Shown here one piece after another: positions 5,179 to 40,596 of a DNA stretch of 64,000 nt. The number at the start of each line of letters is the position of its first letter. Position 1 is the first letter of the stretch. Source of the DNA: Clostridiaceae bacterium. GTDB taxonomy: Bacteria > Bacillota > Clostridia > Acetivibrionales > DTU013. The notes under the pieces were generated by a model. The model worked only from the letters and a program-made list of their open reading frames with translations. It made no database searches and was not told the DNA's origin. The translations under genes were made by a program, and so were the position numbers. Where the stretch lies: assembly GCA_012519745.1 (NCBI GenBank), contig JAAYPO010000068.1:3154-67153 (forward strand), read 5' to 3'.

Positions 5179-5343
5179 ATGAAGGATAAGAGGAAGGACT
5201 ACAATCTTGGTGTGCCGGTGGAGAAGCACGATACTGCGGCATGGGCGAATGTCGAGAAGAAGAAATCCCATTCCAGGGTGCCCATACCATCTGAGTTTCA
5301 GATCATAAATGCCAAGCTCCATGTGGACGAAAACGAGAAATGA
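5179..5343 (+). CDS. small conserved hypothetical protein (54 aa; resembles clostridial DUF3787-type small proteins)
   Basis: From ORF 5158..5343. ATG 5179 is preferred (GAAGGAG RBS 7 nt upstream). The sequence HDTAAWANVEKKK..IPSE..INAKLHVDENEK recalls a small clostridial protein family, from memory only. A strong terminator follows directly. Confidence 0.4.
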   Translation: MKDKRKDYNLGVPVEKHDTAAWANVEKKKSHSRVPIPSEFQIINAKLHVDENEK

Positions 5344-5350
5344 AGAAAAC

Positions 5351-5381
5351 GGGTCGTGATCGCGGATCACGGCCCATTTTT
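5351..5381 (+). terminator. Rho-independent terminator, probably bidirectional
   Basis: An 11-bp stem GGGTCGTGATC/GATCACGGCCC (one G-U pair) with a 3-nt loop, followed by ATTTTTAT on the + strand. On the - strand the same hairpin is followed by GTTTTCTTC. Confidence 0.6.
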
Positions 5382-5397
5382 ATAGGCTCCTGTGTGG

Positions 5398-5626
5398 GGC
5401 TGGCCGGCGGCTGCAAACCGACATCGGCTCCGATCATGGACAGAATGTAATTATCCATGCTCGTTCTTAAGCGGGCGCTGATAAACCGGCATCCAGCCTT
5501 ATTATCTGCGCCTGCGGCATCCGTGCCGCATGTTGTGGGTCGTAGTGCCGCTTTCGAACTTCGCATGGATAAACATTCTGTAGCCATTCACTGCGCATGA
5601 TGTCGGTTTGCAGCCGCCGGCCAGCC
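5398..5626. repeat. 229-bp rod-like inverted-repeat element (candidate structured ncRNA or MITE) in the nifJ 3' region
   Basis: Perfect 28-bp arms: GGCTGGCCGGCGGCTGCAAACCGACATC (5398-5425) and its exact reverse complement (5599-5626). A second helix pairs ATGGACAGAATGTAATTATCCATGC with GCATGGATAAACATTCTGTAGCCAT. Inner local hairpins are GCGCTGATAA..TTATCTGCGC and GCGGCA-TCC-GTGCCGC. No credible ORF is present. Confidence 0.7.
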
Positions 5627-5657
5627 TTACTAGCAGGGGACGTCCCCTGCTTCCGTG

Positions 5658-8600
5658 CTATTGTCCGCAGAGGCGGCGGTACGCTTCGTAGCGGTCCTGG
5701 GCATGGGCCTCCGATTGCTGGAAGAGGTTTTCTGCCAGGTCGGGGAAGACGTTCATCAGCTGGGTGTAGCGCACCTCGCCGGTGAGGAAATCCCTGTAGG
5801 GTCGTTCCGGCTTCCTGGATTCGAGCTGGAACGGGTTTTTGCCTGCCTCACGCAGCTCCGGGTTGAACCGGTAGAGGTGCCAATAGCCCGTATCCACGGC
5901 CTTGCGCTCCTCTGCGATGCTGGTGCCCATTCCGGACTTGATGCCATGGGATATGCAGGGAGCATATGCAATGACCAGCGACGGTCCCTTGTAGTTCTCG
6001 GCCTCTGTCAGCGCCTTTATCGTCTGGTTCATATTGGCCCCCATTGCGATTTGTGCCACATAAACATATCCATAGCTCATTGCCATCATGCCAAGATCCT
6101 TTTTCTTCATGTGCTTTCCTGCAGAAGCGAATTTGGCTACTGCTCCGGCAGGAGTTGCCTTAGAGGACTGACCGCCTGTGTTGGAATATATTTCGGTGTC
6201 CAGTACTAATAGATTGACATCGGCTCCTGTTGCCAGGACGTGGTCAAGGCCTCCGTAGCCGATATCGTAAGCCCATCCGTCACCCCCTATTATCCAGAAG
6301 GATCTCTTGGTCAGATAGTCTTTTTTGCTCATTATTTCTTCCAGGAGCCTGTTGTCTTTCAAATCTGTCTCTGACAAAGCCTTGAGTACATTTGCAGAGG
6401 CAGCCTCAGAGGCTTCGCCGTCGTCCTTGGACTCAAGCCACGCACCGAAGGCCTGCTTGACTGAAGCCGGCAGCTCCTGCTCCATGCTTTGCCGCATCAG
6501 ATCGGCAATGCGCTCTCTTATTTGATTGACTCCAAGGTACATGCCGAATCCGAACTCCGCATTGTCTTCGAATAATGAATTGGCCCATGCCGGCCCTTTG
6601 CCCTTCGAATTTGTTGTGTATGAGATGGACGGAGAGCTGGCGCTCCAGATGGATGAGCAGCCTGTTGCGTTGGCTATCATCATGCGGTCCCCGAACAGCT
6701 GAGTGATGAGCCTGACGTAAGGAGTTTCACCGCATCCGGGACAGGCTCCGTTATATTCCAGCAGCGGCTGTACGAATTGGCTTCCCTTCAGCGTCTTTTT
6801 GTCCATGACATTTTCCTTTGGAGCCAGGGACAAAGAGAACTCCCAATTGTCGTCCTGTTTTTCTGTTTCCTCCTCTGCAGGCACCATTATCAGCGCTTTC
6901 TCGGAGGTAGGGCAGACATCGGCACAATTGCCGCAGCCGGTGCAGTCCAGTGGACTGACCTGTACTCGGAAGCGCATGTTTTCAAGCCCTTTTCCGGCTG
7001 CCTTCAGTGTAGTATAGTTTTCCGGCGCTTTAGCGGCCTCCTGCTCATCCAGCAGGAACAGCCGTATCGTAGCATGGGGGCATACATACGAGCATCTGCC
7101 GCACTGTATGCAGTTATTGGGCTGCCATTGGGGCAGCATTATTGCTATACCGCGCTTTTCATAGGCTGTGGTCCCCAGGGGATGTGTCCCGTCCTCTATG
7201 CCGTTGAAAGCGCTGACAGGCAGCTCATCTCCTTCATGGCGGGCCATGGGCCTTTGTATCCTGTGTATGAAATCCGGCAGTGTTTCAGGCGTCCTGCTCT
7301 CGTCGGGAGCATCGGCCCATTCTTTTGGTACGCTTACCTCGTGCAGTGCGCCGATGGAGAGGTCCACTGCCTGGTTATTCATGTCGACTATTTTCCTTCC
7401 CTTTCTTCCGTAGGCACTTTCGATGGAAGCCTTCAGATACTTTATCGCATCCTCCACCGGAATGATGTTTGCAAGCTTGAAGAACACTGTCTGCATAATC
7501 ATATTTATCCTGTTGCCAAGACCGATATCTCCTGCTATTTTTACTGCGTCTATAGTGTAGAAGCTGATATCGTTTTGGGCAATATACCTTTTCAGCTTTG
7601 CAGGGAGATTGGTTTCAAGCTCGTCTGCATTCCATGGGCAGTTCAGCACGAACACTCCCTTCTTTTTCAGGCCTTTAAGGATATCATAGTTGTACAGGAA
7701 CGACTTGTTGTGGCAGGCGATATAGTCTGCATTATATACGAGGTAAGGGCTCCTGATGGGGTTCGGCCCGAACCTGAGATGGGAAACTGTCGTACCGCCG
7801 GATTTTTTGCTGTCGTATGAGAAGTATGCCTGTGCGTAAAGGTCCGTATTATCTCCGATGATCTTTATCGCCGATTTATTGGCGCCCACAGTGCCGTCGG
7901 ATCCGAGGCCCCAGAACTTACAGCTGATGGTGCCTGCGGGTGTGGTTTCGATGATGTCTCCCTCCGGCAGTGAGGTATATGTGACATCGTCGACTATACC
8001 TATGGTGAACCCGTCCTTTGGTTCATTGCTCATAATGTTTTCAAATACCGCAGCTATCTGTGACGGGCGTGTATCCTTGGAGCCAAGACCGTATCTGCCG
8101 CCAATTATGAGAGGCTTCTGTCCGCTCACGCTGTAATACGCCTTGCAGACATCCAGATAGAGCGGCTCGCCGGGAGAGCCGGGCTCCTTTGTACGGTCCA
8201 GGACCGCTATTCCTTTCGCTGATTTTGGTATGGCATCCAGCAAATGCTTTTCTGAAAACGGCCTGTAGAGTCTGACCCTGACCGCACCTGTCTTTTTGCC
8301 CTCTGCATTCATATAGTCCACGGTTTCGTTGACAGTGTCACATACCGAACCCATCGCGATTATTACATATTCGGCATCAGGTGCTCCGTAATAATCAAAC
8401 AGATGGTAGCTCCTGCCGGTTGTCCGCTCTATATCCTTCAGGCAGTCTTCGACGATGGAGGGCACCCGGTCATAAAACTTGTTTGAGGCTTCTCTTCCCT
8501 GAAAGTATATATCAGGGTTCTGAGCTGTCCCTCTGGCAACAGGGTGCTCGGGATTCAGAGCCCTGTTTCTGAAATCGCTGACAGCCTGGATATCCACCAG

Positions 8601-9327: not shown

Positions 9328-9393
9328 AGATAAAGCATGAGTTTTGTCGAGTATCTGCGATTGGTATAAGATTATTGATAAGTGAGGTTCAGG

Positions 9394-11352
9394 ATGGAAA
9401 TTGAAAACAAAAGAATCCTCATAGCTGACGATAACAAGGATATACATGATGACATCAAGTATATCCTTGAGACTTCTTCCGGGTATATGGAGGACTATCA
9501 GGAAACAAAGCTCCTGAAGGAGGAGCTGTTTGGAGAGAGCCGGCAGAGCCCTGCAAATAAGGCTGTAATAGATATAAAGTATGATATCGATGATGCTTAT
9601 CAGGGGAACGAGGCCATTGAAATGGTCAGCAGGGCCAGAGAAGCCGGAGAACCTTATTCGCTGATATTCATGGATGTCAGGATGCCGCCGGGGATGGATG
9701 GGATCGAGACAATAGAGAAAATATGGGAGATCGACCGTGATGTGGGTGTAGTGATATGTACCGCATATTCGGATTACTCCTGGGATCAAATCATTTCAAA
9801 GCTTGGGCACAAGGATAACCTTCTGTTTATAAGAAAACCCTTCGACAATGTATCACTGAAGCAGATAGCTCTTGCCATGACTACAAAATGGAGCCTGAAA
9901 ATGCAGGTGAAAAAGCATATAGGAACCCTTGAGCAGGAAGTGGACAAAAGGACAATGGAGCTTAAGCTGACCGTTGAGAAGCTAAGGGATGAAATAGTGC
10001 TCCGTGAAGAAAAGGAGAAGCTTTTGGCGTATAGCGCCCATTATGACTCATTGACTGAGCTGCTCAACAGGAGATCCTTCTCTGACTCCGTCAAATCACT
10101 CATCGATGAGGAGCCGAGCCGCTGCAGGTCGTTTTCACTATTCTATCTTGACCTTGATGATTTTAAAAGCGTCAATGATATTTACGGTCACGATATCGGA
10201 GACCAGCTGCTGATCAAAGTGTCAGAGAGGATAGGAAGGATGCTGGATGAGCATGCATGCTATGTGCCGGACTATGTAAGCGAGCACGGAAAGGTAAAGG
10301 CTATATTCAGACTTGGAGGAGATGAATTCACGGCAGTTGTAAATGAGACAGACCGAAGGGCTGTGGGAAAAATAGCGCAGTCTCTTATTGACTCGATCAG
10401 TGAGCCTTATATCATCTCAGGGCATGAGGTAGATGTTTCCTGCTGTATCGGTATCAGCATATACAAAGGGAAGGATACTCCGATAAATACATTGCTGAAG
10501 TATGCGGATATAGCTCTCTATGAAGCGAAGAAGGTACACAGCACATATAGGTTCCATGAACTGTCGGAGTCATATTCCTACATCAATGAAAAAAGGATCG
10601 AGAGGGAATTAAAAAAAGCCATCGCCAGGAATCAGATCGATGTATATATGCAAAGTCTGGTCAACACCAGGGATGAGGTCATCGGAATGCAGTCGCTGAT
10701 CAGGTGGCTGCACCCGGAATATGGTGAGCTTGAGCCCGGGCGTTTTTTGCATATCGCACAGAAATCCGACCAGATCATTGTCCTTGGCGCATATGTTATC
10801 AGGAAATCACTGGAGTATCTAAAAAGGATACATGAATCCGGCCACGACAAGCTTTTTGTGATGGTCAGCTGTACATCCAGGGAATTTTACCATCCGGGTT
10901 TTGTTGACAGCATAAAGTCGGCGGTCAATGAAGCAGGCATAGCGCCGTCATATCTGAAGCTTAATCTGGAGGACAAGTTCACCTTCCAGACTACACCGGG
11001 TGCCCTGGCTATTATTCGGGAGCTCAATGAGTTCGGGGTACAGTTTGCCCTCAATGGCTTTGACAGTGATTATCCTGCATTCGTTTTCCTGCAGCAGGTC
11101 CCGAAGGATACTATGATCAAGCTTAACAGAGCGTATGTCAAAAATATTGCCACAGATACAAAAAACCAAAAATTTCTGATGGCTCTTATGGATATCATTG
11201 AGACCTGGGAACTGGATGTGATCATAAGCGGTATTGAGACCCAGGAGCAAAAGAGCATCCTTGATTCAAGGGAGTGTATACTGCAGGGGTATCATTTCAA
11301 TACACCCAAGCCCATCGACCAGTATCTGAAAGATCTTGCGGCAGGAGAATAA
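9394..11352 (+). CDS. response regulator: REC + GGDEF (intact) + degenerate EAL domain
   Basis: From ORF 9382..11352, with ATG 9394 preferred (GTGAGG RBS). REC blocks: ILIADDN, FMDVRMPPGMDG, VICTAYSD, IRKPF. GGDEF domain with RLGGDEFTAV. The EAL-like domain has its key residues replaced: GMQSLIRW, VSCTS, LNLED, NGFDSDY, KLNRAY, SGIET. QGYHF is retained. Confidence 0.85.
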   Translation: MEIENKRILIADDNKDIHDDIKYILETSSGYMEDYQETKLLKEELFGESRQSPANKAVIDIKYDIDDAYQGNEAIEMVSRAREAGEPYSLIFMDVRMPPGMDGIETIEKIWEIDRDVGVVICTAYSDYSWDQIISKLGHKDNLLFIRKPFDNVSLKQIALAMTTKWSLKMQVKKHIGTLEQEVDKRTMELKLTVEKLRDEIVLREEKEKLLAYSAHYDSLTELLNRRSFSDSVKSLIDEEPSRCRSFSLFYLDLDDFKSVNDIYGHDIGDQLLIKVSERIGRMLDEHACYVPDYVSEHGKVKAIFRLGGDEFTAVVNETDRRAVGKIAQSLIDSISEPYIISGHEVDVSCCIGISIYKGKDTPINTLLKYADIALYEAKKVHSTYRFHELSESYSYINEKRIERELKKAIARNQIDVYMQSLVNTRDEVIGMQSLIRWLHPEYGELEPGRFLHIAQKSDQIIVLGAYVIRKSLEYLKRIHESGHDKLFVMVSCTSREFYHPGFVDSIKSAVNEAGIAPSYLKLNLEDKFTFQTTPGALAIIRELNEFGVQFALNGFDSDYPAFVFLQQVPKDTMIKLNRAYVKNIATDTKNQKFLMALMDIIETWELDVIISGIETQEQKSILDSRECILQGYHFNTPKPIDQYLKDLAAGE

Positions 11353-11353
11353 T

Positions 11354-13918
11354 ATGTATAAACGTATCGGTCCGGATCCGCACAAAAAAAGATATACCTT
11401 TGGCTTTCTGGATGAGAACATCGATAATGATTTTCACAACCTGATCCTGGAGGGCATATCGGAGGCCGCCCGGGAGCTGGACATAGATGTGATCAGATTC
11501 AGCTACTATTCCTCCCACATAGCCTACAAATTTTCACATCAGGTAGATATGGTCCTTGATCATATACAGCAGTACGATCTTGACGGACTGCTGTTTCTCG
11601 GCTGGACCCAGGCAGGGGCGATGTACAATCATGAGGATTTCATGCGGCGTTTCGGTTCCATGCCTTTGTTGAGCCTTGGTACTATTTTCGATGATATACC
11701 GTCTGTCTATTTTACGGGTGATGAATTCATTGCAAAGATGACACGCCATCTCATAGAGGTGCACAACCTGACAAGAATAGCTTATGTAGAGCATTACAGA
11801 GCCGATAACAGAAGGGATGCCTATGAACGTGTCATGCGTGAATACGGGATATATGATCCCAGGCTGTATGTGGGGAATGATGTGCTTCCATCAGGGATGG
11901 ACCAGCATCAGGAGAGAAGCAGGAGAGCTGCGCAGGTCCTGATGGACGAGAGAAAGCTTGATGTCCAGGCAGTTATATCACCGAACTACAATGAAACCGG
12001 TTTTTTAATAGATGAGTTTCAGTCCAGAGGCTTTAGCGTGCCTGCAGATATTGCCGTCGTCAGCTACGAGGAGGGCGATTTTGCAGAGTACTCCTATCCC
12101 GGATACACTACGGTGTATTTTCCCTGGAGGGAGCTTGGCTATGTTGGCTGCGTGAAGCTGGAGAAGCTTGTAAGGGAAGGCAGCATACCCATGGAAACGG
12201 AGCTGTCCGATTATGGCAGGATAATATACAGAGAATCCTGCGGATGCCTCCCATATTATGTAAGACCGGCAGACGCGGAGCGTACCGGTGATTCGGTACA
12301 TGGTGTCGACGGCATGACTGCCTTGGAGAAATGTAATATCGTGAATTCGCTTTACTCGTTGTACGAAGGCTGTGGTATATCCTTTGAGAAGCTGGTAGAT
12401 GCATTTATAATTGCATTCATATGCAGGGATGGCATGACCTTTCTCAAGGAGGCGGAAGAACAGCTGCGAAATATAAAGGCACATTCCAAGATAAATGAAT
12501 TGGCAACCGATATCAGAAACCTGATCTACCCGTTCTTACTTACAGATATCAATGGGATGTTGTGGTCAGGCAACCTGTTCATGCAGTTCCAGGCCCTTGT
12601 CAGTGAAAAGACGGCATGTATGCACGGAGTAGAGGTGCTCAGGGCAAGGATGATGGACCAGAGCCTGCAAAATCTGGACCAGCGGCTGTTTTTGAATTTC
12701 TCGCTCCACCATCTCATTACCGTACTGGAAGACGGATTGAAAATGCTTGAGATAAACAGCTGCCATATTTTTATATCAAATTCTATTTTTACCGGCACAG
12801 ATGTGGAGGAAAATCTTTTTGACAACAGTGTGCTGCTGTTCAAGTATGTAAACGGGAAAAGGATAGAGACATCCCAAATGGCAGGCAGCCTGAAGCAGCA
12901 GCTGGCCATGATCCGGTCAGAAGGGATAGGACAGGTATCGCTGGCCTATTTGCTGCATGTGACAGATGAAATAATGGGATTTGTGCTGTTTGGTCCGGGT
13001 GCGGGACCGCTGGATGAGATATTCTATCAAACCCTGTCTACCAACATCAGTACTTCCCTGCATGGTATCGTGCTTTTGAACAGGCTGGACCAGGCTTACA
13101 GAAAACTTGTGGAGCATGCCCAGAAGGAAGGGATGGCTGACATTGCTGCAAATATCCTGCACAGCATAGGAAACACGCTCAATAGCATGAATGTCTCACT
13201 TCATCTGGTGGAGGAAAGCTCCGGGGCACAGCTGTTCAGCGACATCATCATGGCGGGCGGGCTGCTTGGTGAAAACATGATGAGGCTGGAGGAGTTCATC
13301 AGCTCGGATGTGAGGGGCAAAAAGCTCATGCAGTTTTATCTGAAGCTGGGGAATGCCGCCGAAAGACTGCAGCTGCAGCTGATCCAGAACATGTACAGAC
13401 TCAAATCAAAGATTGCCGCCATCAATGATGCAGTTGCGGCACAGCAAAGCTACGCAGGGATAGACGTAAGGCTTGAGGAGCTTTTGCTGGAGCCCATAAT
13501 CGAAGATGCCCTCAAGCTGAACAAGGATACCTTCGACAGACAGTCCATCACTGTCGCCAGGGAGTATGAGCCCGGCTTCAGGGCGCTGGTACACAGGGCA
13601 AAGCTGTTTTTTATCATTTTCAATATCATTTCAAATGCCAGAGATGCAATGAGCAGTTATCCTGCAAATAATAAAACCATCTCGATAAAGACATACACGG
13701 ACAACTCCGGAAAGTATCTGAGGATAAGCGATAATGGCAGAGGTATCCCGGAGGGCAGTCTTGACAGAATATTTGAATATGGATTTTCCACCAAGGAGGG
13801 CCGCTCCGGTTACGGACTGTACAGCTGCAGCAGATATATGGAGGATATGGGCGGAACGATCCATGCCGAAAGCGACGGGAAAGAAAAGGGAGCGTCCTTT
13901 GTTCTCAAGTTTTCATAG
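11354..13918 (+). CDS. soluble sensor histidine kinase with N-terminal LacI/periplasmic-binding-fold core domain (paralogue 1)
   Basis: From ORF 11336..13918. ATG 11354 (AGGAGA RBS) lies 1 nt after the RR stop. LacI-core-like blocks: GFLDENIDNDFH, DGLLFLGW, RIAYVEH..RRDAYERVM, DIAVVSYEEGDF. I see no HTH, signal peptide or TM segment. H-box ANILHSIGNTLNS, N-box FNIISNARDAM, G1 DNGRGIP, G2 GYGLYSC. Confidence 0.75.
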   Translation: MYKRIGPDPHKKRYTFGFLDENIDNDFHNLILEGISEAARELDIDVIRFSYYSSHIAYKFSHQVDMVLDHIQQYDLDGLLFLGWTQAGAMYNHEDFMRRFGSMPLLSLGTIFDDIPSVYFTGDEFIAKMTRHLIEVHNLTRIAYVEHYRADNRRDAYERVMREYGIYDPRLYVGNDVLPSGMDQHQERSRRAAQVLMDERKLDVQAVISPNYNETGFLIDEFQSRGFSVPADIAVVSYEEGDFAEYSYPGYTTVYFPWRELGYVGCVKLEKLVREGSIPMETELSDYGRIIYRESCGCLPYYVRPADAERTGDSVHGVDGMTALEKCNIVNSLYSLYEGCGISFEKLVDAFIIAFICRDGMTFLKEAEEQLRNIKAHSKINELATDIRNLIYPFLLTDINGMLWSGNLFMQFQALVSEKTACMHGVEVLRARMMDQSLQNLDQRLFLNFSLHHLITVLEDGLKMLEINSCHIFISNSIFTGTDVEENLFDNSVLLFKYVNGKRIETSQMAGSLKQQLAMIRSEGIGQVSLAYLLHVTDEIMGFVLFGPGAGPLDEIFYQTLSTNISTSLHGIVLLNRLDQAYRKLVEHAQKEGMADIAANILHSIGNTLNSMNVSLHLVEESSGAQLFSDIIMAGGLLGENMMRLEEFISSDVRGKKLMQFYLKLGNAAERLQLQLIQNMYRLKSKIAAINDAVAAQQSYAGIDVRLEELLLEPIIEDALKLNKDTFDRQSITVAREYEPGFRALVHRAKLFFIIFNIISNARDAMSSYPANNKTISIKTYTDNSGKYLRISDNGRGIPEGSLDRIFEYGFSTKEGRSGYGLYSCSRYMEDMGGTIHAESDGKEKGASFVLKFS

Positions 13919-13934
13919 GAGATGTGATGATATT

Positions 13935-16469
13935 ATGGGACGGAGATTTAGAATAGGCTTTGTGGATGAGGATACATATGACGAATATCACAATTTACTG
14001 ACCAAGGGCATACTGGACTCTGCATGTCAGAATAATATGGATATCATACGTTTCAGCCACTTCCACTATCAGGTCACCTCATCAAACCCGTATCATGAGA
14101 GCGTATATATCGGGCTGATCCGCCAATTCAGACTGGATGGGCTGATCTTTTTGGGATGGGAACGTACTGCCTATAACAGCAGCTTTTTTGAGAGCATGAA
14201 GGATATACCCATGGTCAGTGTGGGTGTACGATTCGACAATGTGGCCGGTGTATATTTCAGAGGCCAGATATATGTAGCTGAAATAATCAGGCACCTGATC
14301 AATGTGCACGGGATGAAGAAGATAGCCTTCATCGCTCCCATCAGGCCTGATGACAGGACGGATGCCTATTTTGAGGTCATGGACAGCTATGGTATGTACG
14401 ACCCCCGTCTTTTCATCAGCCATGAGGAATTATCCGGCCTTGACCAGAGTGAAAGGGGCAGGAGAGCCGTCGGGATCCTTCTCGATGAAAGAGGACTGTG
14501 CCCGGAGGCAATAGTTTCGCTGTATAATGAGGAGACCTTCCAGATAGTGAATGAACTGCAGAGAAGAGGACTTAGGGTCCCGGACGATATAGCGGTAACA
14601 AGCTATGAGGACGGTGAGACCGGCAGATTTTCAATGCCGGCCTTCACAACGGTGTATTTCCCATGGAAGGAGCTTGGGTTCCATGCCTGCGAGGTGATGA
14701 ATGCGCTGCTGACCAAGGGAGAGGTACCTCTGGAAACGATAGTTCCCGGCAATTTGATCTATCGCAGCTCATGCGGATGTATCCCCCAATCGGCGATCTC
14801 CATGGAGACCGGAAGTATCCCGTATTCAGATATCAGGTTCGAGGACCTTGACGAGGACGGACTAAAGAGGATCATCAACGGCATTGCGGAGATGACACCG
14901 TTTGATGCGGCCGAGGCAGGTGCACTGATGGATTCCTTCAGGGAAGCCTTTTACAAGGGTGAGCACAGTTCCTTCCTCATGAAGTTCGAGATGATGCTAA
15001 GGAAGGTGCGTTTTTATGATGAATTCAGAGAATTCAAGCATATAACCGTTGTGTTCCGGAAGCTGCTGATGCCCTATTTCCTTCCGTACGCAGGAGTTTC
15101 TATGGAAAAACCGGTGTGGGCCGACAATATGTTCCATCAGATGCAGGTAATCCTGCAGGACAGGCTGGCAAATGCGTGGTTCCGCAAGGATGTGGAATAC
15201 AACAAGCAGAAGCTTGCCCTGAGGGAAGCAGGGAAGGTATTGTTGACCAGCTTCAGTGTGGAGAGCTTATTTGCAACACTGGAGGCCAATCTGCCCGGTC
15301 TTGGCATAGACAACTGCTGGCTTTATCTCTTTAATGACAGAGAGGGAACGGATATCCCTGATGATTTCCGTCCGGAGTTCATATTCAGGGACGGCAGCCG
15401 TGCTGCGGATCAGAGGCTGTATGACAAGAGCGGCCCCCTATGCCTGGAGGATATATGGTTTGATGATGATACGCCTCATTTCCTGATGTCGCATCTGTTG
15501 TATCAGGGTGATCAGTTCCTTGGTTTCTGTGTATTTGAAACCGGGCTGATGGATGTGAGGATAATCCGCAGCCTCAGTATCCTGATCAGTATAGCTCTCA
15601 ACAGCACCATATTGTTTGAGAAGCTGGACCAGAGCTATAGAAAGCTGATGGAAAAGGCCCATAAGAAAGGGATGTCGGACACCACAGCGATACTTCACAA
15701 CATAGCGAATATAATGAACAGCATCAATGTAACATATCAGGGCCTTGCCGGCATTATCGAGGGAAGTTGTGTTTACGATCTGAAAAGAGCCAATGAGATG
15801 CTGGAAGGCAAATTTGAGCAGTTGGATGATTTTATCAGGAACGATCCAAAGGGAAGGCTCCTGATGCAGTATTATCTTTCCTTCGGCGATTCATTCAGGC
15901 AGCTGCAGAGCAGGCTGAAGGAATATGCCTCCAGAATGCTGGACAAGACCGGCCTTATCGAGGATATCATCAACTCGCAGCAGAGCTTCGAGGGCATCAG
16001 ATCCAATCTGGAGCTGATGGATATCATACCTGTATTGGAGGACGCGCTGAAAATGAGCCGGAATATAATTGACACCAGCGGCGTACAGGTCGTCAAAAGA
16101 TATGACAGACAGGTCAAGGCTCTGGCACAGAGGACTAAACTGATACACATACTGATCAATATCATAAAGAACGCGGTGGAATCGATGCAGCATGGCAATG
16201 CCTCTGATAAGGTACTGACCATCGAGGTGACCTGCGATAGAGAGAGTGTCTATCTCCGGATTTGTGATACAGGACCGGGCATAGAAGCAGGAAAGCTTGA
16301 AAGCATTTTCGCCTATGGCTTCACTACAAAAACCACCGGACATGGCTTTGGGCTCCATAGCTGTGCAAACTATATGGCTGAAATGAAAGGGAGGATATGG
16401 GCGGAAAAGCCTGAAACAGGCACAGGCGCTGTCTTTGTGATGCAATTCAGGTCTCAGCCCTCCCTTTGA
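13935..16469 (+). CDS. soluble sensor histidine kinase with N-terminal LacI/periplasmic-binding-fold core domain (paralogue 2)
   Basis: From ORF 13734..16469, with the start moved to ATG 13935 (MGRRFRIGFVDEDTYDEYHNL; AGGAG RBS). It is collinear with the upstream kinase: DGLIFLGW, KIAFIAP..DRTDAYFEVM, DIAVTSYEDGE. H-box TAILHNIANIMNS, N-box INIIKNAVESM, G1 DTGPGIE, G2 GHGFGLHSC. Confidence 0.75.
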   Translation: MGRRFRIGFVDEDTYDEYHNLLTKGILDSACQNNMDIIRFSHFHYQVTSSNPYHESVYIGLIRQFRLDGLIFLGWERTAYNSSFFESMKDIPMVSVGVRFDNVAGVYFRGQIYVAEIIRHLINVHGMKKIAFIAPIRPDDRTDAYFEVMDSYGMYDPRLFISHEELSGLDQSERGRRAVGILLDERGLCPEAIVSLYNEETFQIVNELQRRGLRVPDDIAVTSYEDGETGRFSMPAFTTVYFPWKELGFHACEVMNALLTKGEVPLETIVPGNLIYRSSCGCIPQSAISMETGSIPYSDIRFEDLDEDGLKRIINGIAEMTPFDAAEAGALMDSFREAFYKGEHSSFLMKFEMMLRKVRFYDEFREFKHITVVFRKLLMPYFLPYAGVSMEKPVWADNMFHQMQVILQDRLANAWFRKDVEYNKQKLALREAGKVLLTSFSVESLFATLEANLPGLGIDNCWLYLFNDREGTDIPDDFRPEFIFRDGSRAADQRLYDKSGPLCLEDIWFDDDTPHFLMSHLLYQGDQFLGFCVFETGLMDVRIIRSLSILISIALNSTILFEKLDQSYRKLMEKAHKKGMSDTTAILHNIANIMNSINVTYQGLAGIIEGSCVYDLKRANEMLEGKFEQLDDFIRNDPKGRLLMQYYLSFGDSFRQLQSRLKEYASRMLDKTGLIEDIINSQQSFEGIRSNLELMDIIPVLEDALKMSRNIIDTSGVQVVKRYDRQVKALAQRTKLIHILINIIKNAVESMQHGNASDKVLTIEVTCDRESVYLRICDTGPGIEAGKLESIFAYGFTTKTTGHGFGLHSCANYMAEMKGRIWAEKPETGTGAVFVMQFRSQPSL

Positions 16470-18032: not shown

Positions 18033-18791
18033 TTATGAAGCAAATTTCCAGTAGCGATACAAACCGTGGAAATCAGGCCGTGTGGCGGAATCCATCAGAT
18101 AGGCGGATACCTGTGAGCCGGCGATCCTGTTTTGATTGAGGGCTCTTATGAAATACTCCACATCACCTGTGCCTATACCATGACCGTAATATCTGCCGCT
18201 TCCCAGATCGATGATGTTCTCCCCCTGCCACTCGGGTGTCAGCGGATTCACATCCGGATTCTTCACATACCTGCAATCGCCCGGTACATAGTCGGGCAGT
18301 CTGCGGTAGGTCGATACACCCAGCAGGTCGTCCATGTCACGCCAGTTCATAAGCACGATCTCACCGAAGGCTTTGTTGAACAGGTCTGCCTTGTATGAAT
18401 CCAGTACAGCCTTGTAGTATATGATCACGATCGCGGTAGCACATTCCGTGCCATACAGGCGTGTGTTGACGAATATGTCGTCGATGGCCTCGGAGGGTCT
18501 GACGCCGGTCTTGAGTGTGAAGCCTCCGTCCACTCTTCTGTTCCAATATCTTTCATTGCATTTGGATTCCTGGAATATGCGGAATGCCAGCCTGCTTCTG
18601 TAAAGTGCGATGGAGGCGTCGATGATATGACGCCGCAAATCAGCCTCAAAAACTAGCTCCTCTCCCGAGGAGTAATCATATACATGACTGCTGTCTATGT
18701 ATGCTCTCAGGAACTCATATTCGGGACTTCCGCTGCCGTATCTGTCAAGAATTTTTTTCGGATCATCCTGGCCGTCTGCAAACCTGATCAT
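18033..18791 (-). CDS. tgl: protein-glutamine gamma-glutamyltransferase (spore-coat transglutaminase)
   Basis: 252 aa. It is collinear with recalled B. subtilis Tgl: ECATAIVIIYY is identical, GDCRYVKNPDV matches GDCLYFKNPEF, WQGENIIDLG matches WRGENVILLG, and YYGHGIG matches YFAHGLG. Confidence 0.92.
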   Translation of the reverse strand: MIRFADGQDDPKKILDRYGSGSPEYEFLRAYIDSSHVYDYSSGEELVFEADLRRHIIDASIALYRSRLAFRIFQESKCNERYWNRRVDGGFTLKTGVRPSEAIDDIFVNTRLYGTECATAIVIIYYKAVLDSYKADLFNKAFGEIVLMNWRDMDDLLGVSTYRRLPDYVPGDCRYVKNPDVNPLTPEWQGENIIDLGSGRYYGHGIGTGDVEYFIRALNQNRIAGSQVSAYLMDSATRPDFHGLYRYWKFAS

Positions 18792-19873
18792 GCCGATCCC
18801 CCCGTGATTTCAGATACTGTCTCTGCCTGTTTGTCAACCGGCTGTCTGATCCATGGATCCCACCGATAGATATCTCTTTGGTGGAGCATACAGGAGAAGC
18901 TGGCCAGATGCTGCTGTTCTGTCCCAGTCAGTTTGGAGAAACCGACGAGCTGATTCATCTCCCAGTCCTCAAGGGGGTACAAGGGCCTTCCGCTGTCTGG
19001 TGACACAGGACGGCAAAGGTACTTGGCCTCAAGTGATACCGCATAGCAGACAGGCCTGCTGCACATTTGCATCGTCTCACCTGTATAGCACAAAAAGGGC
19101 CTGTTTTCCGAGATCCATTGCATTGCTCTCAGATATGCCAGGGTGCCTGCTGCTTCCTCCAGGCCCGGAATAAAGCACAAAAGCTTCCTTGCCAGTGCTG
19201 TATCTTTGCTGTCAGCAGAGATCAGCCTTTGAGCTATCAAATACAGACTATCGGGATTGCAGGCTTCGAAAAACGCCCATACCAGATTGTGGATCAGCTT
19301 TCCCTGTCTGTTCCTATCAAAGATCTTTTCGGCAACTGCAGCAAGAAGGCTGCTGTTTCTGAAGCTCTTGAGGAGTATCCCGCTGCACCGTTCCAGAAGC
19401 AGTTCGTATGCCGCCCTGCCGAGATCGTCCTCCCAGCCTGTTTTTACTATCCACTCAAGTGCCGGGGATACCTGCCGGGTTTCAGAACGCATCCTGCTTT
19501 CGATCTGTGCAAGCCTCAGGCCCGATGATCGCCTCGCCGATCCTCTTCTTATCCCGGCCGGTGTTCTGAAGAAAGCTCTGGACAATGCCCTGCCCGAAGC
19601 CTTAGGTACGCTGCTTCCGGCAGAATGCTCCGACAGTTCTTTGGTGATTTCCAGAGCTTTCCTGTACAGCGGCGGCAGCTCTTCCAAAAGCGAAGCCGAA
19701 GCTATATCCTGCCGCAGAATGTACAATGAGCAAAACCGAAGATTTCCGTCCCTTAGCAGCTGAAGGAGTTTTTCGCGGTCCGTATGAAGCAATTCGTGGA
19801 AATAGGTCCTGAGGCTGTCGGGGCCGTTACTGATCCTTATGTTGTCAAGCAGCGCCGTCTGCATGCCGGTCAT
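18788..19873 (-). CDS. hypothetical protein (361 aa), translationally coupled to tgl
   Basis: Its TGA stop overlaps the tgl ATG (ATGA, 18788-18791). AGGA RBS lies 9 nt upstream of ATG 19873. I recognise no family motif. Confidence 0.6.
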   Translation of the reverse strand: MTGMQTALLDNIRISNGPDSLRTYFHELLHTDREKLLQLLRDGNLRFCSLYILRQDIASASLLEELPPLYRKALEITKELSEHSAGSSVPKASGRALSRAFFRTPAGIRRGSARRSSGLRLAQIESRMRSETRQVSPALEWIVKTGWEDDLGRAAYELLLERCSGILLKSFRNSSLLAAVAEKIFDRNRQGKLIHNLVWAFFEACNPDSLYLIAQRLISADSKDTALARKLLCFIPGLEEAAGTLAYLRAMQWISENRPFLCYTGETMQMCSRPVCYAVSLEAKYLCRPVSPDSGRPLYPLEDWEMNQLVGFSKLTGTEQQHLASFSCMLHQRDIYRWDPWIRQPVDKQAETVSEITGGSA

Positions 19874-19917
19874 ATGTCACCATCCTCTCTCGAAGGCCTT
19901 TTGGCTTTGCCGGATCT

Positions 19918-20895
19918 TCAAAGCTGCCTTTGAAGCTCTGATAACCTTTCTTTCATCTGCGGATCGGGATCATACTCAAGACCGTACATTACAGCTCTCT
20001 CGGCCCTTGCCTTGTCTCCGGTCTTTAAAAATGCATCGGCAAGGTTGTACCAGCCTGTGATATCCTTCGGATCCTGTCTAAGCTTTTTGATATAGTAGGG
20101 AAGCACCTTGCCGGCAAGATAGCGCGTTCTGTCGAGACTTTCCAGATCCATGCCGTTCCAGTGCACCAGTTCGATGTCGAAAATACCAGGGGCGGACTCA
20201 TGCCATAAGGCACAAGCATCCTTGACACGGCCGGAGGCGGCTCTCTTTTTGACAAGCTCCAGTTTGCTGTATTTTTTACTGAAAATCTTCTTTGAGCCTC
20301 CGTCAGATACGGAGTAGGCTATAAGTGTCCGATCCGGCTGTCCCGAGGCAAGTCCCAGCAGCAGAGTCGATTTCCCGTCGCCTGCAATGTCGGCATCGTT
20401 GCGGTAGTGTATTGATGTGAACTCGGGATTGCTGATCTCGGCCATTTTGTACCACTGGACCTCATCCTTTTTGAGCACCAGGGTCCGGATGCCCTCGCCT
20501 GTACTGTATGAGGTGACAAGCTCGCTGCGCCCGTCACCGTCAAGGTCGGCAAATTGTATTTCGCCTGCATTTTCAGGATATTGCGGCTTCACGAGCCTGG
20601 CACCCGGAGGCAGAAAGCTGTTGACAACAGCATTGTAGTCGATTTTTTCAGGTTTTGCGTTAAGCTGTACAGTAATATTGCTTAGCCTTTTTATTATCGA
20701 TCCCACAGGTCTTCTCAGGTTGCCAAGGGAAGGCAGCCCGATTGCTGGAAGGTTGTTGATCGAAGAGATTTTTCTCAGAGCCGGGATGAAGTTTTTTCTG
20801 AAACGGTCCGGATCAAGCAAGCCGGAATAGTATCTTATGCTTCTTGCGGCCAGCTTATCCAGGACCTCAAGACCCGAGCCTTTAGGCAGCTGCAT
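19918..20895 (-). CDS. FG-GAP/VCBS-repeat protein with C-terminal TPR-like region
   Basis: From ORF 19918..20916, with the start moved to ATG 20895 (MQLPKGS; AAAGGGG RBS 8 nt upstream). Ca-binding FG-GAP-like motifs FADLDGDGRSELV and DADIAGDGKSTLLL. C-terminal TPR-like WYNLADAFLKTGDKARAERAVMYGLEYDP. Confidence 0.6.
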   Translation of the reverse strand: MQLPKGSGLEVLDKLAARSIRYYSGLLDPDRFRKNFIPALRKISSINNLPAIGLPSLGNLRRPVGSIIKRLSNITVQLNAKPEKIDYNAVVNSFLPPGARLVKPQYPENAGEIQFADLDGDGRSELVTSYSTGEGIRTLVLKKDEVQWYKMAEISNPEFTSIHYRNDADIAGDGKSTLLLGLASGQPDRTLIAYSVSDGGSKKIFSKKYSKLELVKKRAASGRVKDACALWHESAPGIFDIELVHWNGMDLESLDRTRYLAGKVLPYYIKKLRQDPKDITGWYNLADAFLKTGDKARAERAVMYGLEYDPDPQMKERLSELQRQL

Positions 20896-21131
20896 GATTA
20901 TGACCCCTTTACACATATATTCTTCTATATTCTATGCAAAACACACGGAAACGTTAAAAGATATTGATGATCACGGTCTGCATGAAAGCAGGCCCCGGAT
21001 CCGTGATATCTGTGTAAAACCAGTCTCGTCAGGTTTAATGTGCAGGAATTGCAGCTGTTTCTTTACATATTGGAAAAAATAAGTTAGTATTATTATATGA
21101 GAAAATTCTACATATTTCGGGGGGTATAGTT

Positions 21132-21500
21132 ATGGGTAATAACCGGCCTACGATACTTGTCTGTGACGATTCATTGCTTGTCAGAAAAAAAATGAAGGAC
21201 TGTCTGTCGGAATTAGGCGACTTTAATATTGTTGAAGCGGCAAATGGTCAAAGCTCAGTGGAGTTATTCAAGCAGAACGATCCCGACCTTGTTTTTCTGG
21301 ATATCGTAATGCCAGATAAAAATGGAATCGAAGCTCTCCAGGAAATGATGGAAGTAAAAAAGGATGTAAAGGTCATCATGCTTTCCTCATCCGGAACAAA
21401 GACGCATCTGAAAGCTGCAATGGAGGCCGGTGCCTCAGACTTCATACAAAAACCATGGGAAAAATCCCAGATCGAGCATATCGTTAAAAATATTTTCTGA
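21132..21500 (+). CDS. single-domain CheY-like response regulator
   Basis: 122 aa. All receiver landmarks are present: LVCDDS, acceptor Asp in LVFLDIVMPDKNG, IMLSSSG, FIQKPW. Confidence 0.9.
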   Translation: MGNNRPTILVCDDSLLVRKKMKDCLSELGDFNIVEAANGQSSVELFKQNDPDLVFLDIVMPDKNGIEALQEMMEVKKDVKVIMLSSSGTKTHLKAAMEAGASDFIQKPWEKSQIEHIVKNIF

Positions 21501-21515
21501 TGAGGAGTGTGAAAT

Positions 21516-22391
21516 ATGTTTAGCCAATATTTCGGACATTATCTGCTGAACAAGGGTCTTGTAACGCCGGAGCAACTGACCGATGCTCTCGAGTATCAGC
21601 GTTCAATGCATCTCAAGCTGGGTGTAATAGCGATAAACGCTGGGTATATGACGCCTGCGCAGGTTGAACAGATACACAACATGCAAAAGAGAGTAGACAA
21701 AAGATTCGGCGAACTGGCAATAGAGCACGGCTATATCACAGAAGGCATGCTCAACGATATGCTGACTACCCAGAAGCAGGGGCATCTGATGCTGGGTCAG
21801 GCACTGATCGACAGGAATTACTTTACCATGGAGCAGCTGCAGTCGGCTTTGGATGATTACAAAAGGGAAAACGGCATATCCAAGAGACAATTCAATGTGG
21901 TCAGGAAGGATGACGCAAAGGAAATCGAACAGATCTTCCAGAGCTACGGAGAGACTCTGCTGGCGGCGACCTACAGCGACTATGTGACACTGCTGATCAA
22001 GAACATTATCAGATTCGTTGATGACAATCCCACAGTGGAGATCAATCAGCTGAAGACGGATATAACAGCCGAATGGTACGCATGCCAGGAGATCCAGGGC
22101 AAGATATCCATGCATACCGGTATTGCAAGTGATACGCGGCAGTTTGTCATATTGGCGGCAAAATTTGCCCAGGAGGAGATCACCGAACCGGATGAGCTTG
22201 CTCAGGCATCTGTCGGAGAATTTCTCAACCTGCATAACGGCATATTCCTGGTAAATATGTCAAACAACGGCGTAGAACTTGAAATGCAGCCGCAGATGGT
22301 TTCCGGGAACTATACATTCAGCAATCCGGGCAAAGCATATGTGGTTTCCTGCCACATGACCTGGGGCAAATTTGACATTATTCTCGCATAG
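21516..22391 (+). CDS. fusion protein: four tandem MshEN-type (T2SSE_N-like) c-di-GMP-binding motifs + C-terminal CheX/CheC-like phosphatase domain
   Basis: Residues 5-115 are four 24-aa repeats separated by 5-aa spacers, each fitting RLGxxLLxxGLIxxxxLxxxLxxQ. The C-terminus DELAQASVGEFLNLHNG..LEMQPQMV resembles recalled T. maritima CheX DELALSAIGELGNMTAG..ITPPTVV, and the ExxN motif is retained. GAGGAG RBS; the gene starts 15 nt after the CheY stop. Confidence 0.6.
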   Translation: MFSQYFGHYLLNKGLVTPEQLTDALEYQRSMHLKLGVIAINAGYMTPAQVEQIHNMQKRVDKRFGELAIEHGYITEGMLNDMLTTQKQGHLMLGQALIDRNYFTMEQLQSALDDYKRENGISKRQFNVVRKDDAKEIEQIFQSYGETLLAATYSDYVTLLIKNIIRFVDDNPTVEINQLKTDITAEWYACQEIQGKISMHTGIASDTRQFVILAAKFAQEEITEPDELAQASVGEFLNLHNGIFLVNMSNNGVELEMQPQMVSGNYTFSNPGKAYVVSCHMTWGKFDIILA

Positions 22392-22442: not shown

Positions 22443-22475
22443 AAAAGGCGACAGCTATCAGCTTCGCCTTTTTTG
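22443..22475 (+). terminator. Rho-independent terminator after the CheY/MshEN-CheX pair
   Basis: AAAAGGCGA, a 12-nt loop and TCGCCTTTTTT. Confidence 0.65.
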
Positions 22476-22506
22476 ATTCCTCTGAAGAGGAACTACTGAA
22501 GAGTAT

Positions 22507-37532: not shown

Positions 37533-39764
37533 ATGAATAAAACAGGCTGCAAGGATGTGCTTCAGCATGATTCCAAGCTTCTGACCACACTGTTGGACGT
37601 TTCCAACCTAGTTTCCTCCACGATGGAGCTCAGAGCGCTGCTTGAAGCCATTCTGGACAAACTCAGGACCATAATTGAGTATAGTAATGCAAAGATCTTC
37701 ATTTCAGAAGGCGAGTATGGCAGGGTGATAGCACACAGATCCGTCCTAAAGCCTTCCCAGGAGGCTTCTTATACGCTGCCCCTCGGGAGGGATATGCTGC
37801 TGGGCAGAGAGCCAATGGTTATAGATGATATCCGATCGGACAGCGCGCTGGCTGTCACTTTCAGAAAAAACATGCATGAATATATGGATACGGTCTTTGG
37901 TGAAACCAGATGCTGGATGAGCCTGCCCATGGTGTTCAAGGATAGTGTTATCGGTATATTGACCCTGGACCATAATGAAGCGGGATACTATAAAGCACAT
38001 CATGTGGAGCTCGGGACCGCATTTGCCAACCAGGCGGCCATAGAGTATATGAATGCCAGTCTGTATAATGAGACGGCCAAAAAGGCGGATGAGATAAAAA
38101 CCCTATTCAGTATACAGCAGGCAATAACCAGCCGCCTGGAGCTTGATTCGGTGCTTCGGCTCATCGCAGGCGAAGCCAAAAGACTGACTTATTCAAATTC
38201 CACGGCTGTCTTCCTGGTAGAAGGAGAAGATCTGGTGCTGTCGATATATGCGGGAGATGACCTCGAGGGCCTGACAGGACTGAAGATACCTATAAGAGGT
38301 TCGGCCATGGGAGAGAGCTTACACCTCCGTGAGTCCGTCATTATGAAGAGGTCACAGCTGGAGATGATGCCGGAGAACATACTCATCGATGCCACTGCCA
38401 TGAGCACCTGCATGCTGGTCCCCTTACTGGCGGGTTCAAGGCCTGTGGGTGTAATTGCCGCCTTCAGCAGATCAGTGAGTGAGTTTGACTCAGAGGATGA
38501 GAGAATATTCAACATGTTTGCGCCAAGTGCAGTGATCGGGATAGAAAATGCAAGACTGTACCAGGAGGAAAAAAGAAGGCTGCAGGAAAATGAACAAAGA
38601 AGGCTTGTGGCCGAAGGTCTTAAGGATATACTCAGGGCGTTGAATTCAAACAGGTCCCTGGAAGATATACTCGGCTTTATCATCAAAGAGGCGTCACGGC
38701 TTCTGCACACTGACGCAGCCGCGCTTTTCAGGCTGGATGCCAGCAAGAGCGGGCTCAATCTCGTAGCTTCATGCGGATTGCCGCATTTCAATGAAATAGA
38801 CAGCGAAGTCGACGTAGGGGCGGATATACTGAAAAAAGCGTTTATTGAAAGAAGGCCTTTAGTAAAGACCGATATGAGAGATATAGTACTGCCGCAGGAC
38901 GCTCACCCACTGATGGAAGTGCACTTCAAATGGATCAGGGACAATTGCAGCAGCATGATGGCTGTACCCCTGGTGTGCAAGGATGAAGTGTATGGCGGGA
39001 TCATACTGTATTTCCACCATGAAAGGTCCGGTGACCGGGCTTCACTAAGGGAGGATATCAGTCTTGCCATGACATTTGCCGACCAGGCTGCGTTGGCGAT
39101 CGATAATACGAGGTTGAAAAAGCAGGCAGAGGAGACGGCAGTCATTGCAGAGAGAAACAGGCTCGCCCGTGATCTGCACGATGCTGTGACCCAGACATTG
39201 TTTTCGGCAAGCCTGATAGCGGAAGTGGTGCCGCGGATATGGAACCGCAGCCATGAGGAAGGCATGAAGCGGCTCAATGAGCTGAAACAGCTGACCCGGG
39301 GCGCGCTGGCTGAAATGAGGACCCTTTTGTTTGAGCTTCGCCCTGCAACTCTGGAGGAAGCGCCTCTTGAGGAGCTGCTGAAGCAGTTGAGCGAGGCGGT
39401 CACGGGCCGGGCAAGGATCCCTGTGAAGCTTGACTTCAAGGGGACCTCAAAGCTTCCGGCCGATGTGAAGATAGTATTTTACCGTGTGGCCCAGGAGGCA
39501 CTGAACAATATATCAAAGCATTCAGGTGCTAAAAACGCGGTGCTGGAGCTTAATATAAACGAAGACAAGCAGCTGGATATCATCGTTGCCAGCCTTAACG
39601 TGACCGATGACGGGAATGGATTTGATCCCGGCAAGGTCACTTCCGGACATTTTGGCCTGAGCATAATGAAGGAACGTGCAGAGACAGTGGGAGCTGTGCT
39701 TAAGGTCAGGTCGGAGATGGGGCAGGGGACAGCTGTGGAGCTCCAGTGGGTGGGGAATAAATAA
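37533..39764 (+). CDS. cytoplasmic multi-GAF sensor histidine kinase (HisKA_3 / NarX-DegS type)
   Basis: 743 aa with no TM segment. About 540 aa of repeated GAF-like modules. HisKA_3 H-box ERNRLARDLHDAVTQTLF. HATPase blocks ALNNISKHSGA, DDGNGFD, GHFGLSIM. Confidence 0.85.
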   Translation: MNKTGCKDVLQHDSKLLTTLLDVSNLVSSTMELRALLEAILDKLRTIIEYSNAKIFISEGEYGRVIAHRSVLKPSQEASYTLPLGRDMLLGREPMVIDDIRSDSALAVTFRKNMHEYMDTVFGETRCWMSLPMVFKDSVIGILTLDHNEAGYYKAHHVELGTAFANQAAIEYMNASLYNETAKKADEIKTLFSIQQAITSRLELDSVLRLIAGEAKRLTYSNSTAVFLVEGEDLVLSIYAGDDLEGLTGLKIPIRGSAMGESLHLRESVIMKRSQLEMMPENILIDATAMSTCMLVPLLAGSRPVGVIAAFSRSVSEFDSEDERIFNMFAPSAVIGIENARLYQEEKRRLQENEQRRLVAEGLKDILRALNSNRSLEDILGFIIKEASRLLHTDAAALFRLDASKSGLNLVASCGLPHFNEIDSEVDVGADILKKAFIERRPLVKTDMRDIVLPQDAHPLMEVHFKWIRDNCSSMMAVPLVCKDEVYGGIILYFHHERSGDRASLREDISLAMTFADQAALAIDNTRLKKQAEETAVIAERNRLARDLHDAVTQTLFSASLIAEVVPRIWNRSHEEGMKRLNELKQLTRGALAEMRTLLFELRPATLEEAPLEELLKQLSEAVTGRARIPVKLDFKGTSKLPADVKIVFYRVAQEALNNISKHSGAKNAVLELNINEDKQLDIIVASLNVTDDGNGFDPGKVTSGHFGLSIMKERAETVGAVLKVRSEMGQGTAVELQWVGNK

Positions 39765-39798
39765 TGCTGCTGAATCAAAGTAGAGAGGTGAAGATATT

Positions 39799-40431: not shown

Positions 40432-40497
40432 GTCTGCCGGCATATGGGACCTGGTCAACCGGCCAGGTAGAAAACCGGCCATAAGGACATAAATAAT

Positions 40498-40533
40498 CCC
40501 CCCATCTGATTGAAGTCAGGATGGGGTTTTTTT
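40498..40533 (+). terminator. Rho-independent terminator after the NarL-type regulator
   Basis: CCCCATCTGA, a loop and TCAGGATGGGG, followed by TTTTTTTAT. Confidence 0.7.
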
Positions 40534-40596
40534 ATTACAATTTAATAGAGAGTACAATTGCAGACATTTTGCCTGTTGTGTTATGAGGTGGTTGGA

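Follow-up and report, generated by a model that had tools for sequence, protein, structure and literature searches.

Can the second messenger cyclic di-GMP (c-di-GMP) act directly on a chemotaxis-type phosphorelay, by controlling how long a CheY-like protein stays phosphorylated? The question is raised by two adjacent genes in a 64,000-nucleotide stretch of DNA from a Clostridiaceae bacterium (GenBank assembly GCA_012519745.1, contig JAAYPO010000068.1, positions 3,154 to 67,153), referred to below as the window. The first gene encodes a CheY-type receiver, and the second a fusion of four units of the c-di-GMP-binding MshEN type to a domain of the CheX type, a predicted phosphatase of phosphorylated CheY (CheY-P). 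We find that the two proteins are obligatory partners in a widespread family, and we consider that the fusion protein probably dephosphorylates its own CheY-like partner in response to c-di-GMP and may serve as a tunable phosphate sink. The family has been catalogued but is uncharacterised; the observation made in the first-pass annotation, which read the letters of the window, is real and was correctly described. The genes and domains are the following:

21132..21500, + strand: CheY-type receiver gene, 122 amino acids (open reading frame; Pfam Response_reg)
21516..22391, + strand: fusion gene, 291 amino acids, with four MshEN-type units, a linker and a CheX-fold domain
21528..21599, + strand: unit 1 (residues 5-28, YFG...Q), outer, degenerate, position 1 aromatic and not Arg
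21615..21686, + strand: unit 2 (residues 34-57, KLG...Q), inner, canonical
21702..21773, + strand: unit 3 (residues 63-86, RFG...Q), inner, canonical
21789..21860, + strand: unit 4 (residues 92-115, MLG...Y), outer, degenerate
21861..21911, + strand: linker (residues 116-132), from AlphaFold2 confidence and column composition
21912..22388, + strand: CheX-fold domain (about residues 133-291), from Foldseek and the family-level match to Pfam CheX
22218..22229, + strand: predicted catalytic ExxN, E235-F-L-N238, from alignment to solved CheX

Domains of the receiver and the fusion protein

The first product matches Pfam Response_reg with 98.8 bits and has a complete acceptor pocket (D12, D13, D57, S85 and K107), with F104 as the aromatic switch residue. 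Five of these residues (D12, D13, D57, F104 and K107) are invariant across 80 receiver orthologues, in agreement with its initial description as a complete single-domain CheY. When the receiver was compared with the PDB, the eight best matches were all chemotaxis CheY proteins (E 9e-23 to 2.5e-20), and the next natural receiver of another family was Spo0A (E 1e-15). It is 39% identical to what we take to be the sequence of Bacillus subtilis CheY, and the best CheY model of NCBIfam scores it at 99.3 bits, below the equivalog cut-off of 200. By these sequence comparisons, the receiver is of the CheY type and closer to chemotaxis CheY than to other receivers.

For the second product we obtained an AlphaFold2 model with a predicted local distance difference test score (pLDDT) of 82. 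A Foldseek search of the PDB placed CheX- or CheC-like structures in all 13 best positions (E 1.6e-9 to 7e-7, target TM-score 0.68-0.77), the best being 3IIC, 3HM4, 1SQU and 3HZH (E 1.6e-9 to 2e-7, target TM-score 0.74-0.77). The C-terminal ~150 amino acids had been called CheX-like by eye, against a Thermotoga maritima string, DELALSAIGELGNMTAG; the fold agrees with that call, and the string is that of the real 1SQU/1XKO sequence and aligns E235 and N238 with the Glu and Asn of CheX. A profile of the C-terminal region makes the same alignment with 1SQU and 1XKO (T. maritima), 3HZH (Borrelia burgdorferi) and 3IIC. Neither residue varies among 51 close members, and among 141 diverse representatives (26-48% identity) the first position is Glu or Asp in 138 and the second Asn in 138, so that the reading of E-F-L-N as the retained catalytic pair stands. 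Of 51 family members, 39 match Pfam CheX (PF13690) at E <= 0.01, the best at 4.5e-10. On reading the sequence, no ExxN is seen in the first long helix (residues 150-167), and the protein, with a single ExxN, is CheX-like and not CheC-like. We conclude that the second product is of the CheX type and is predicted, from fold model and alignment, to be a CheY-P phosphatase.

The N-terminal array consists of four 24-residue units joined by the 5-residue spacers RSMHL, KRVDK and KQGHL, in the positions and letters first reported, and the spacer lengths are constant in all 407 family sequences. It matches NCBIfam NF053729 (cyclic di-GMP-binding domain, MshE-related) with 94.2 bits over a cut-off of 38, in two stretches of which the best covers residues 6-57, and sequence comparison with the PDB pairs it with the c-di-GMP domains of PilF and MshE; by profile, then, the resemblance to MshEN is upheld. 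The best local alignment of Vibrio cholerae MshE (5HTL residues 7-61) falls on residues 32-86, that is, on units 2 and 3. Foldseek aligned the array model with 5HTL_A over 57 columns at a root-mean-square deviation of 1.3 A and 32% identity, with a global E-value (0.36) that is weak because the match is short; counted by hand, this match gives 18 of 57 identities for units 2+3 and units 3+4 alike. Two Pfam matches to the motif region, FumaraseC_C and DUF4388, were below their cut-offs and were treated as helical-hairpin look-alikes.

The claim that each unit fits the published MshEN motif did not hold, since none of the four matches the strict form and a relaxed search pattern finds unit 3 only. 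Of six key motif residues (R, L and G at positions 1-3, Leu at 17, Leu at 21 and Gln at 24), unit 3 has all six, unit 2 has five (His at 21), unit 1 five (Tyr at 1) and unit 4 four (Met at 1, Tyr at 24). Across the family G36 and Q57 of unit 2 are essentially invariant, and 97% of weighted sequences retain both Gly at 3 and Gln at 24 in units 2 and 3. In unit 1, position 24 is Gln in 49% of the family; in unit 4, Gly occupies position 3 in ~44%, and position 24 is never Gln but always Tyr or Phe. The window protein itself has Gly at position 3 in all four units. Judged by these columns, it is only in the inner units (residues 34-57 and 63-86) that the canonical c-di-GMP residues are preserved throughout the family.

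Between array and CheX domain, the family has a conserved helix-cap motif, G-[LI]-[ST]-x-x-[DEQ]-[FLM], within the consensus G-L-S/T-D-E-[DEQ]-F-E-A-L-K-N-G-D (residues ~120-133; residues 121-133 correspond to 21876-21914). The motif is confidently helical in the model of a triple fusion described below and is modelled as disordered in the window protein, in whose clade the segment reads ISKRQFNVV and has no acidic residues. FliM and FliY carry a CheY-P docking peptide of the type LSQxEIDALL. The linker was considered as such a peptide and rejected: its profile, searched against PDB sequences, gave no FliM or FliY, only generic helix-cap motifs (LigA/SonA leaders and designed repeats).

The receiver as an obligatory partner

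Receiver and fusion genes lie on the same (+) strand and in the same frame, with 15 nucleotides between the receiver stop codon (21498-21500) and the ATG at 21516. The candidate expression signals around them are:

21062..21090, + strand: sigma-70-like promoter candidate TTTACA-17-TAGTAT, upstream of the receiver gene (consensus scan)
21502..21507, + strand: GAGGAG ribosome-binding site, 8 nucleotides ahead of the fusion-gene ATG (sequence reading)
22443..22478, + strand: intrinsic-terminator-like bulged hairpin and U-run closing the two-gene operon (RNA fold)

The two reading frames, the gap and the ribosome-binding site are all as originally stated. The terminator then assigned to the pair is supported by the hairpin, which folds at -25.5 kcal/mol (z = -2.88 against shuffled sequence) and was not picked up by a consensus terminator scan. 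The promoter candidate is at chance level, such sites being no commoner here than in shuffled sequence. Receiver gene and fusion gene are a self-contained operon.

The family was surveyed with a profile run against 1.84 billion cluster representatives at a threshold of E <= 1e-30. It comprises at least 385 clusters at 50% identity, nearly all of 285-315 amino acids, and relatives occur in at least 482 GTDB species representatives. Carriers include Bacillaceae, Clostridium, Paenibacillus, Peptococcia, Desulforudis, metagenome-assembled genomes (MAGs) of Oscillospiraceae/Hungateiclostridiaceae, Lachnospiraceae from gut samples, and Desulfuromonadales. The window itself matches a Clostridia MAG from a biogas fermenter. 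That the CheY-like partner is a dedicated one had been proposed from the single locus, and the survey of gene pairs bears this out: in 80 of 80 loci the fusion gene is immediately preceded by a receiver gene from one orthologous group; the receiver gene ends between -26 and +39 nucleotides from the start of the fusion gene, and in Bacillaceae the two genes often overlap by 8 nucleotides. The same pair is found on a Desulfuromonadales-type scaffold. A query with the N-terminus of Geobacter lovleyi Glov_2742, obtained by optical character recognition, returned mostly truncated or frameshifted gene calls, and scaffold L083 among them carries the receiver-fusion pair. The 80 loci share no kinase, che, fla or GGDEF gene beside the pair, and other neighbours are conserved only among close relatives. 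One locus, from a Desulforudis sp. MAG (L025 5185-5999), has two tandem receiver genes (5185-5574 and 5622-5999) ahead of the fusion gene.

In a Lachnospiraceae subfamily that makes up 57 of 114 newly listed clusters, the receiver is found C-terminal to CheX within one protein of 432-436 amino acids (examples are the gene L088 6001-7305 of the Lachnospiraceae assembly GCA_011959805.1 and proteins P0320, P0354, P0363 and P0382). The first 290 residues of this protein align collinearly with the window protein, and the receiver part (residues ~319-430) scores 94-104 bits in Pfam and is 40% identical to the window receiver. No separate receiver gene accompanies this stand-alone gene, and its products are annotated in the sources as 'chemotaxis protein CheY' or 'response regulator'. 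The AlphaFold2 model is confident (pLDDT 88.7, predicted TM-score 0.78), only the linker between CheX and receiver being weak. The triple fusion is not a read-through artefact, because its domain order differs from the gene order, and it provides a separate line of evidence that receiver and CheX domain act on each other. The receiver and the fusion protein are a dedicated pair.

Arrangement of the four units

In MshE-type modules two units act together, and the array had been read as two such modules, (1+2) and (3+4). Conservation and coevolution favour another pairing, an inner 2+3 and a degenerate outer 1+4. Couplings were computed by pseudolikelihood on 407 sequences (239 effective), and of the top 60, 18 join units 1 and 4 and 9 join units 2 and 3, with 2 each for units 1-2 and 3-4; the data set is small, conserved columns give little signal, and intra-chain contacts are inseparable from inter-chain contacts of a dimer. 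Position-equivalent couplings recur in both favoured pairs (I.23-II.9, I.19-II.9, I.19-II.11 and I.2/17-II.17/2), the last of them being the Leu-cluster contact described for MshE, and the 1-4 and 2-3 coupling maps are the sole correlated pair of maps (r = 0.22, permutation p = 0.001). When a mean-field method was applied to subsamples (~120 effective sequences), the 1-4 enrichment was robust, and the 2-3 enrichment and the map correlation were weak, so that the nested model is based on the pseudolikelihood runs over the full data and on the conservation patterns. A mean-field analysis of the full-length array and CheX domain was ill-conditioned, dominated by hub positions and gap columns, and was discarded.

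Further observations bear on the pairing. One is the best local alignment of V. cholerae MshE, which falls on units 2 and 3 as described above. In the triple-fusion clade (57 clusters), position 3 of unit 4 is Tyr, Phe, Leu, Ile or Val, while units 2 and 3 stay canonical. These changes are of the same kind as the MshE substitutions G11L and G40I, by which binding is abolished. Further, AlphaFold2 confidence within the array is highest across the junction of units 2 and 3 and lowest at that of units 3 and 4. The sequence patterns thus lend moderate support to a nested array, in which an intact inner module of the c-di-GMP type (2+3) would be clasped by a degenerate outer pair (1+4). A safe expectation for the array is at least one predicted ligand site, not necessarily two.

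It could be argued instead that the units form two independent sequential modules, each binding one c-di-GMP, as the published label '(MshEN_N)2' implies. The two stretches found by the NCBIfam model, the better of them on units 1 and 2, would fit this arrangement, as would the exact 5-residue length of every spacer, which is that of MshE, and the presence of Gly at position 3 in all units of this protein. Since couplings within 1-2 and 3-4 are nearly absent, only the maps of 1-4 and 2-3 correlate, unit 4 has lost Gly at position 3 in 57 clusters where units 2 and 3 have not, and model confidence dips at the 3-4 junction, we regard sequential modules as rather unlikely. The nested arrangement can be made more specific: module 2+3 may be inserted into the spacer of a split 1+4 module, in a protein acting as a c-di-GMP-gated phosphate sink. 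This fuller version we put forward tentatively, as a possibility worth pursuing. In such a topology the two ligand-facing ends would adjoin each other and the linker into CheX, and binding of c-di-GMP at the inner site would be passed via the outer clamp to the phosphatase. If true, other tandem MshEN_N arrays would have to be read differently.

Possible function, known relatives and surroundings

How might the pair work? The receiver would be phosphorylated on D57 by an unlinked kinase, for which CheA is the obvious candidate because the receiver is CheY-like in sequence. The inner units (residues 34-86) would constitute one canonical four-helix MshEN_N site for c-di-GMP, and the outer units (residues 5-28 and 92-115) would pack alike around them, as a degenerate second module leading into the linker. 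The CheX domain would put its ExxN helix into the active site of the receiver and speed hydrolysis, as in PDB 3HZH, and occupancy of the array by c-di-GMP would change, upwards or downwards, the efficiency of this dephosphorylation. The pair would then be a c-di-GMP-tunable drain on a phosphorelay fed by CheA or another kinase. Since the receiver is dedicated to its phosphatase, and sometimes fused with it, it is unlikely to be a diffusible, motor-binding CheY, and a c-di-GMP-tuned phosphate sink appears to be the most economical reading. As for the messenger, genes for c-di-GMP turnover that the first-pass annotation had missed (EAL, PTS_EIIC-EAL and REC-GGDEF-EAL) lie in the window within 20 kb, which shows that the organism makes and degrades c-di-GMP.

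Several observations weigh against a c-di-GMP-responsive phosphatase. A domain scan, which had been suggested as a first check, recognised the MshEN part of the window protein and left Pfam CheX below threshold (18.6 bits, the gathering score being 27), and the sequence E-values of the profile against CheX structures in the PDB are not significant (0.13-1.1). The CheC family is characterised by the signature D/S-x3-E-x2-N. The residue four positions before the Glu is Ala (Ala231) here and in this clade, and in the 141 representatives of the wider family it is Asp in 71 and Ser in 9. The linker that would transmit the signal is modelled with low confidence in the window protein (pLDDT <50 at residues 120-132). 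In the array, position 21 of unit 2 is His or Asn throughout the family, where V. cholerae MshE has a guanine-contacting Leu, and units 1 and 4 lack the motif Arg, unit 4 also the Gln. No kinase, motor or che gene is linked to the pair; as had been noted at the outset for cheA, cheW and genes of methyl-accepting chemotaxis proteins, a Pfam scan of ~40 open reading frames of the window found none of these, nor any other che or fla gene. Lastly, in the full-text literature we found no characterisation of MshEN-CheX fusions after their listing in 2016.

The departures in the array could mean that it does not bind c-di-GMP, and is a structural or interaction module that dimerises or localises a constitutively active CheX serving its own receiver. 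The failure of all four units to fit the strict motif, and the conservation in the family of both the substituted position 21 of unit 2 and the degenerate outer units, are in keeping with this, and there are precedents: loss of binding has been noted for many MshEN-like domains (Wang et al. 2016, Nat Commun 7:12481, PMC5013675), and the N-domain of Xanthomonas XpsE has lost it too. We nevertheless think it unlikely, since the positions that make the polar ligand contacts in MshE (Gly 3 and Gln 24 of units 2 and 3) are the most conserved of the array, a pattern not readily accounted for in a helix bundle with a purely structural role, and the score of the hidden Markov model is far over its cut-off. 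Quite improbable is a protein whose CheX domain only binds the phosphorylated receiver, making it a coincidence detector or adaptor that joins receiver phosphorylation and c-di-GMP to a separate target: although CheC, FliY and FliM relatives include non-catalytic CheY-P binders, FliM is among the weaker fold matches of the CheX domain, this clade has Ala in place of Ser or Asp, and the Lachnospiraceae receiver-CheX fusion would be a futile kinase-phosphatase cycle unless the complex itself signals, the near-invariance of E235 and N238 across 26-48% identity is a hallmark of retained catalysis, and there is neither an output domain nor a conserved third gene.

A CheX-type phosphatase responsive to c-di-GMP, which we continue to favour, can be set beside several known proteins. 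In fold and in its single ExxN helix the window protein resembles T. maritima CheX (1SQU/1XKO) and the CheX of the B. burgdorferi CheX-CheY3 complex (3HZH); it differs from solved CheX proteins in ~130 additional N-terminal residues, a location outside a che operon, a dedicated receiver and an identity of only 13-18%. In spirochaete che operons cheX is likewise next to a cheY gene. With V. cholerae MshE (5HTL) and Thermus thermophilus PilF the array shares the 24-residue motifs, the 5-residue spacer and the four-helix-bundle fold. Unlike them, the window protein has four units and not two, has no MshEN_C and no ATPase but a phosphatase-type output domain, lacks Arg at position 1 in units 1 and 4 and has His/Asn for the guanine-contacting Leu in unit 2.

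The architecture itself had been thought to have no characterised example. That holds for the full text that we searched, but the architecture is not new: Wang et al. (2016) named CheX among the domains fused to MshEN, and their Suppl. Table 4 lists '(MshEN_N)2 - CheX' for G. lovleyi Glov_2742, in Deltaproteobacteria and Firmicutes and with no reference. Glov_2742 (their Suppl. Fig. 3) belongs to the same family and has the same domain order, and its N-terminus has the same F/Y-F-G start, His at position 21 of unit 2, 'xxHL' spacers and aromatic end of unit 4. Their entry mentions neither a receiver partner nor a CheX-REC (receiver domain) triple fusion nor the asymmetry of inner and outer units, and the fusion of four units, CheX and REC is absent from their architecture table. 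They measured c-di-GMP binding for several MshEN_N proteins and no CheX fusion; one of those measured, in vitro, is a CheA fragment (dissociation constant 2.6 uM). In this CheA, of Aeromonas veronii (their Suppl. Table 6), MshEN_N is built into an enzyme of the chemotaxis phosphorelay, as input into the kinase by a single two-motif module, whereas here the input would go into a domain of the phosphatase type. Closest in function is PlzC of V. cholerae, a PilZ protein that acts in trans to inhibit CheX, an effect that does not depend on c-di-GMP binding (PNAS 2026, PMC12799141). There a c-di-GMP receptor protein controls CheX and hence the level of CheY-P; PlzC is a separate protein, whereas the putative receptor in the window is of the MshEN type and fused in cis.

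If our reading is correct, a widespread cassette would link c-di-GMP directly to a two-component or chemotaxis phosphorelay. This route would act on the lifetime of the phosphorylated receiver, known ones acting by a motor brake, by receptor methylation or by transcription control. Beyond the 2016 catalogue, the obligatory pairing, the Lachnospiraceae fusion and the asymmetry of inner and outer units sharpen the hypothesis and make it readily testable. Its small size makes the system convenient for experiments: it consists of two small soluble proteins, in Lachnospiraceae of one, and the catalytic residues (E235, N238) and predicted ligand-site residues (G36, Q57, G65, Q86) are clear. We see in it a good experimental lead and not a new kind of system.

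The c-di-GMP genes mentioned above belong to a cluster upstream of the pair (21-788, 1478-3820, 9382-11352, 11336-13918 and 13734-16469). It contains an EAL protein perhaps cut by the start of the window, an unusual PTS_EIIC-EAL fusion, and a REC-GGDEF-EAL gene followed by two histidine kinases with sensor domains like periplasmic binding proteins. Two open reading frames on the minus strand (18788-20916; 361 and 332 amino acids), neither with a match in Pfam, separate the receiver gene from a gene for a spore-coat transglutaminase (TGL), and keep their position beside the pair only in close relatives. Downstream, a second signalling cluster (37533-41681) encodes a triple-GAF HisKA_3 kinase, a LuxR-type response regulator, a further single-domain receiver (40558-40947) and an ECF-type sigma factor. 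A ydaO-type riboswitch for cyclic di-AMP (43286-43456, minus strand; 75.5 bits, gathering score 38) lies directly upstream of a gene for a LysM and cell-wall hydrolase protein (42510-43286, minus strand). Finally, a 2933-amino-acid open reading frame at 44507-53308 (plus strand), with glucoamylase-like and GH94 supersandwich and catalytic domains, resembles a giant glycan phosphorylase or a cyclic-glucan-synthase-like protein.

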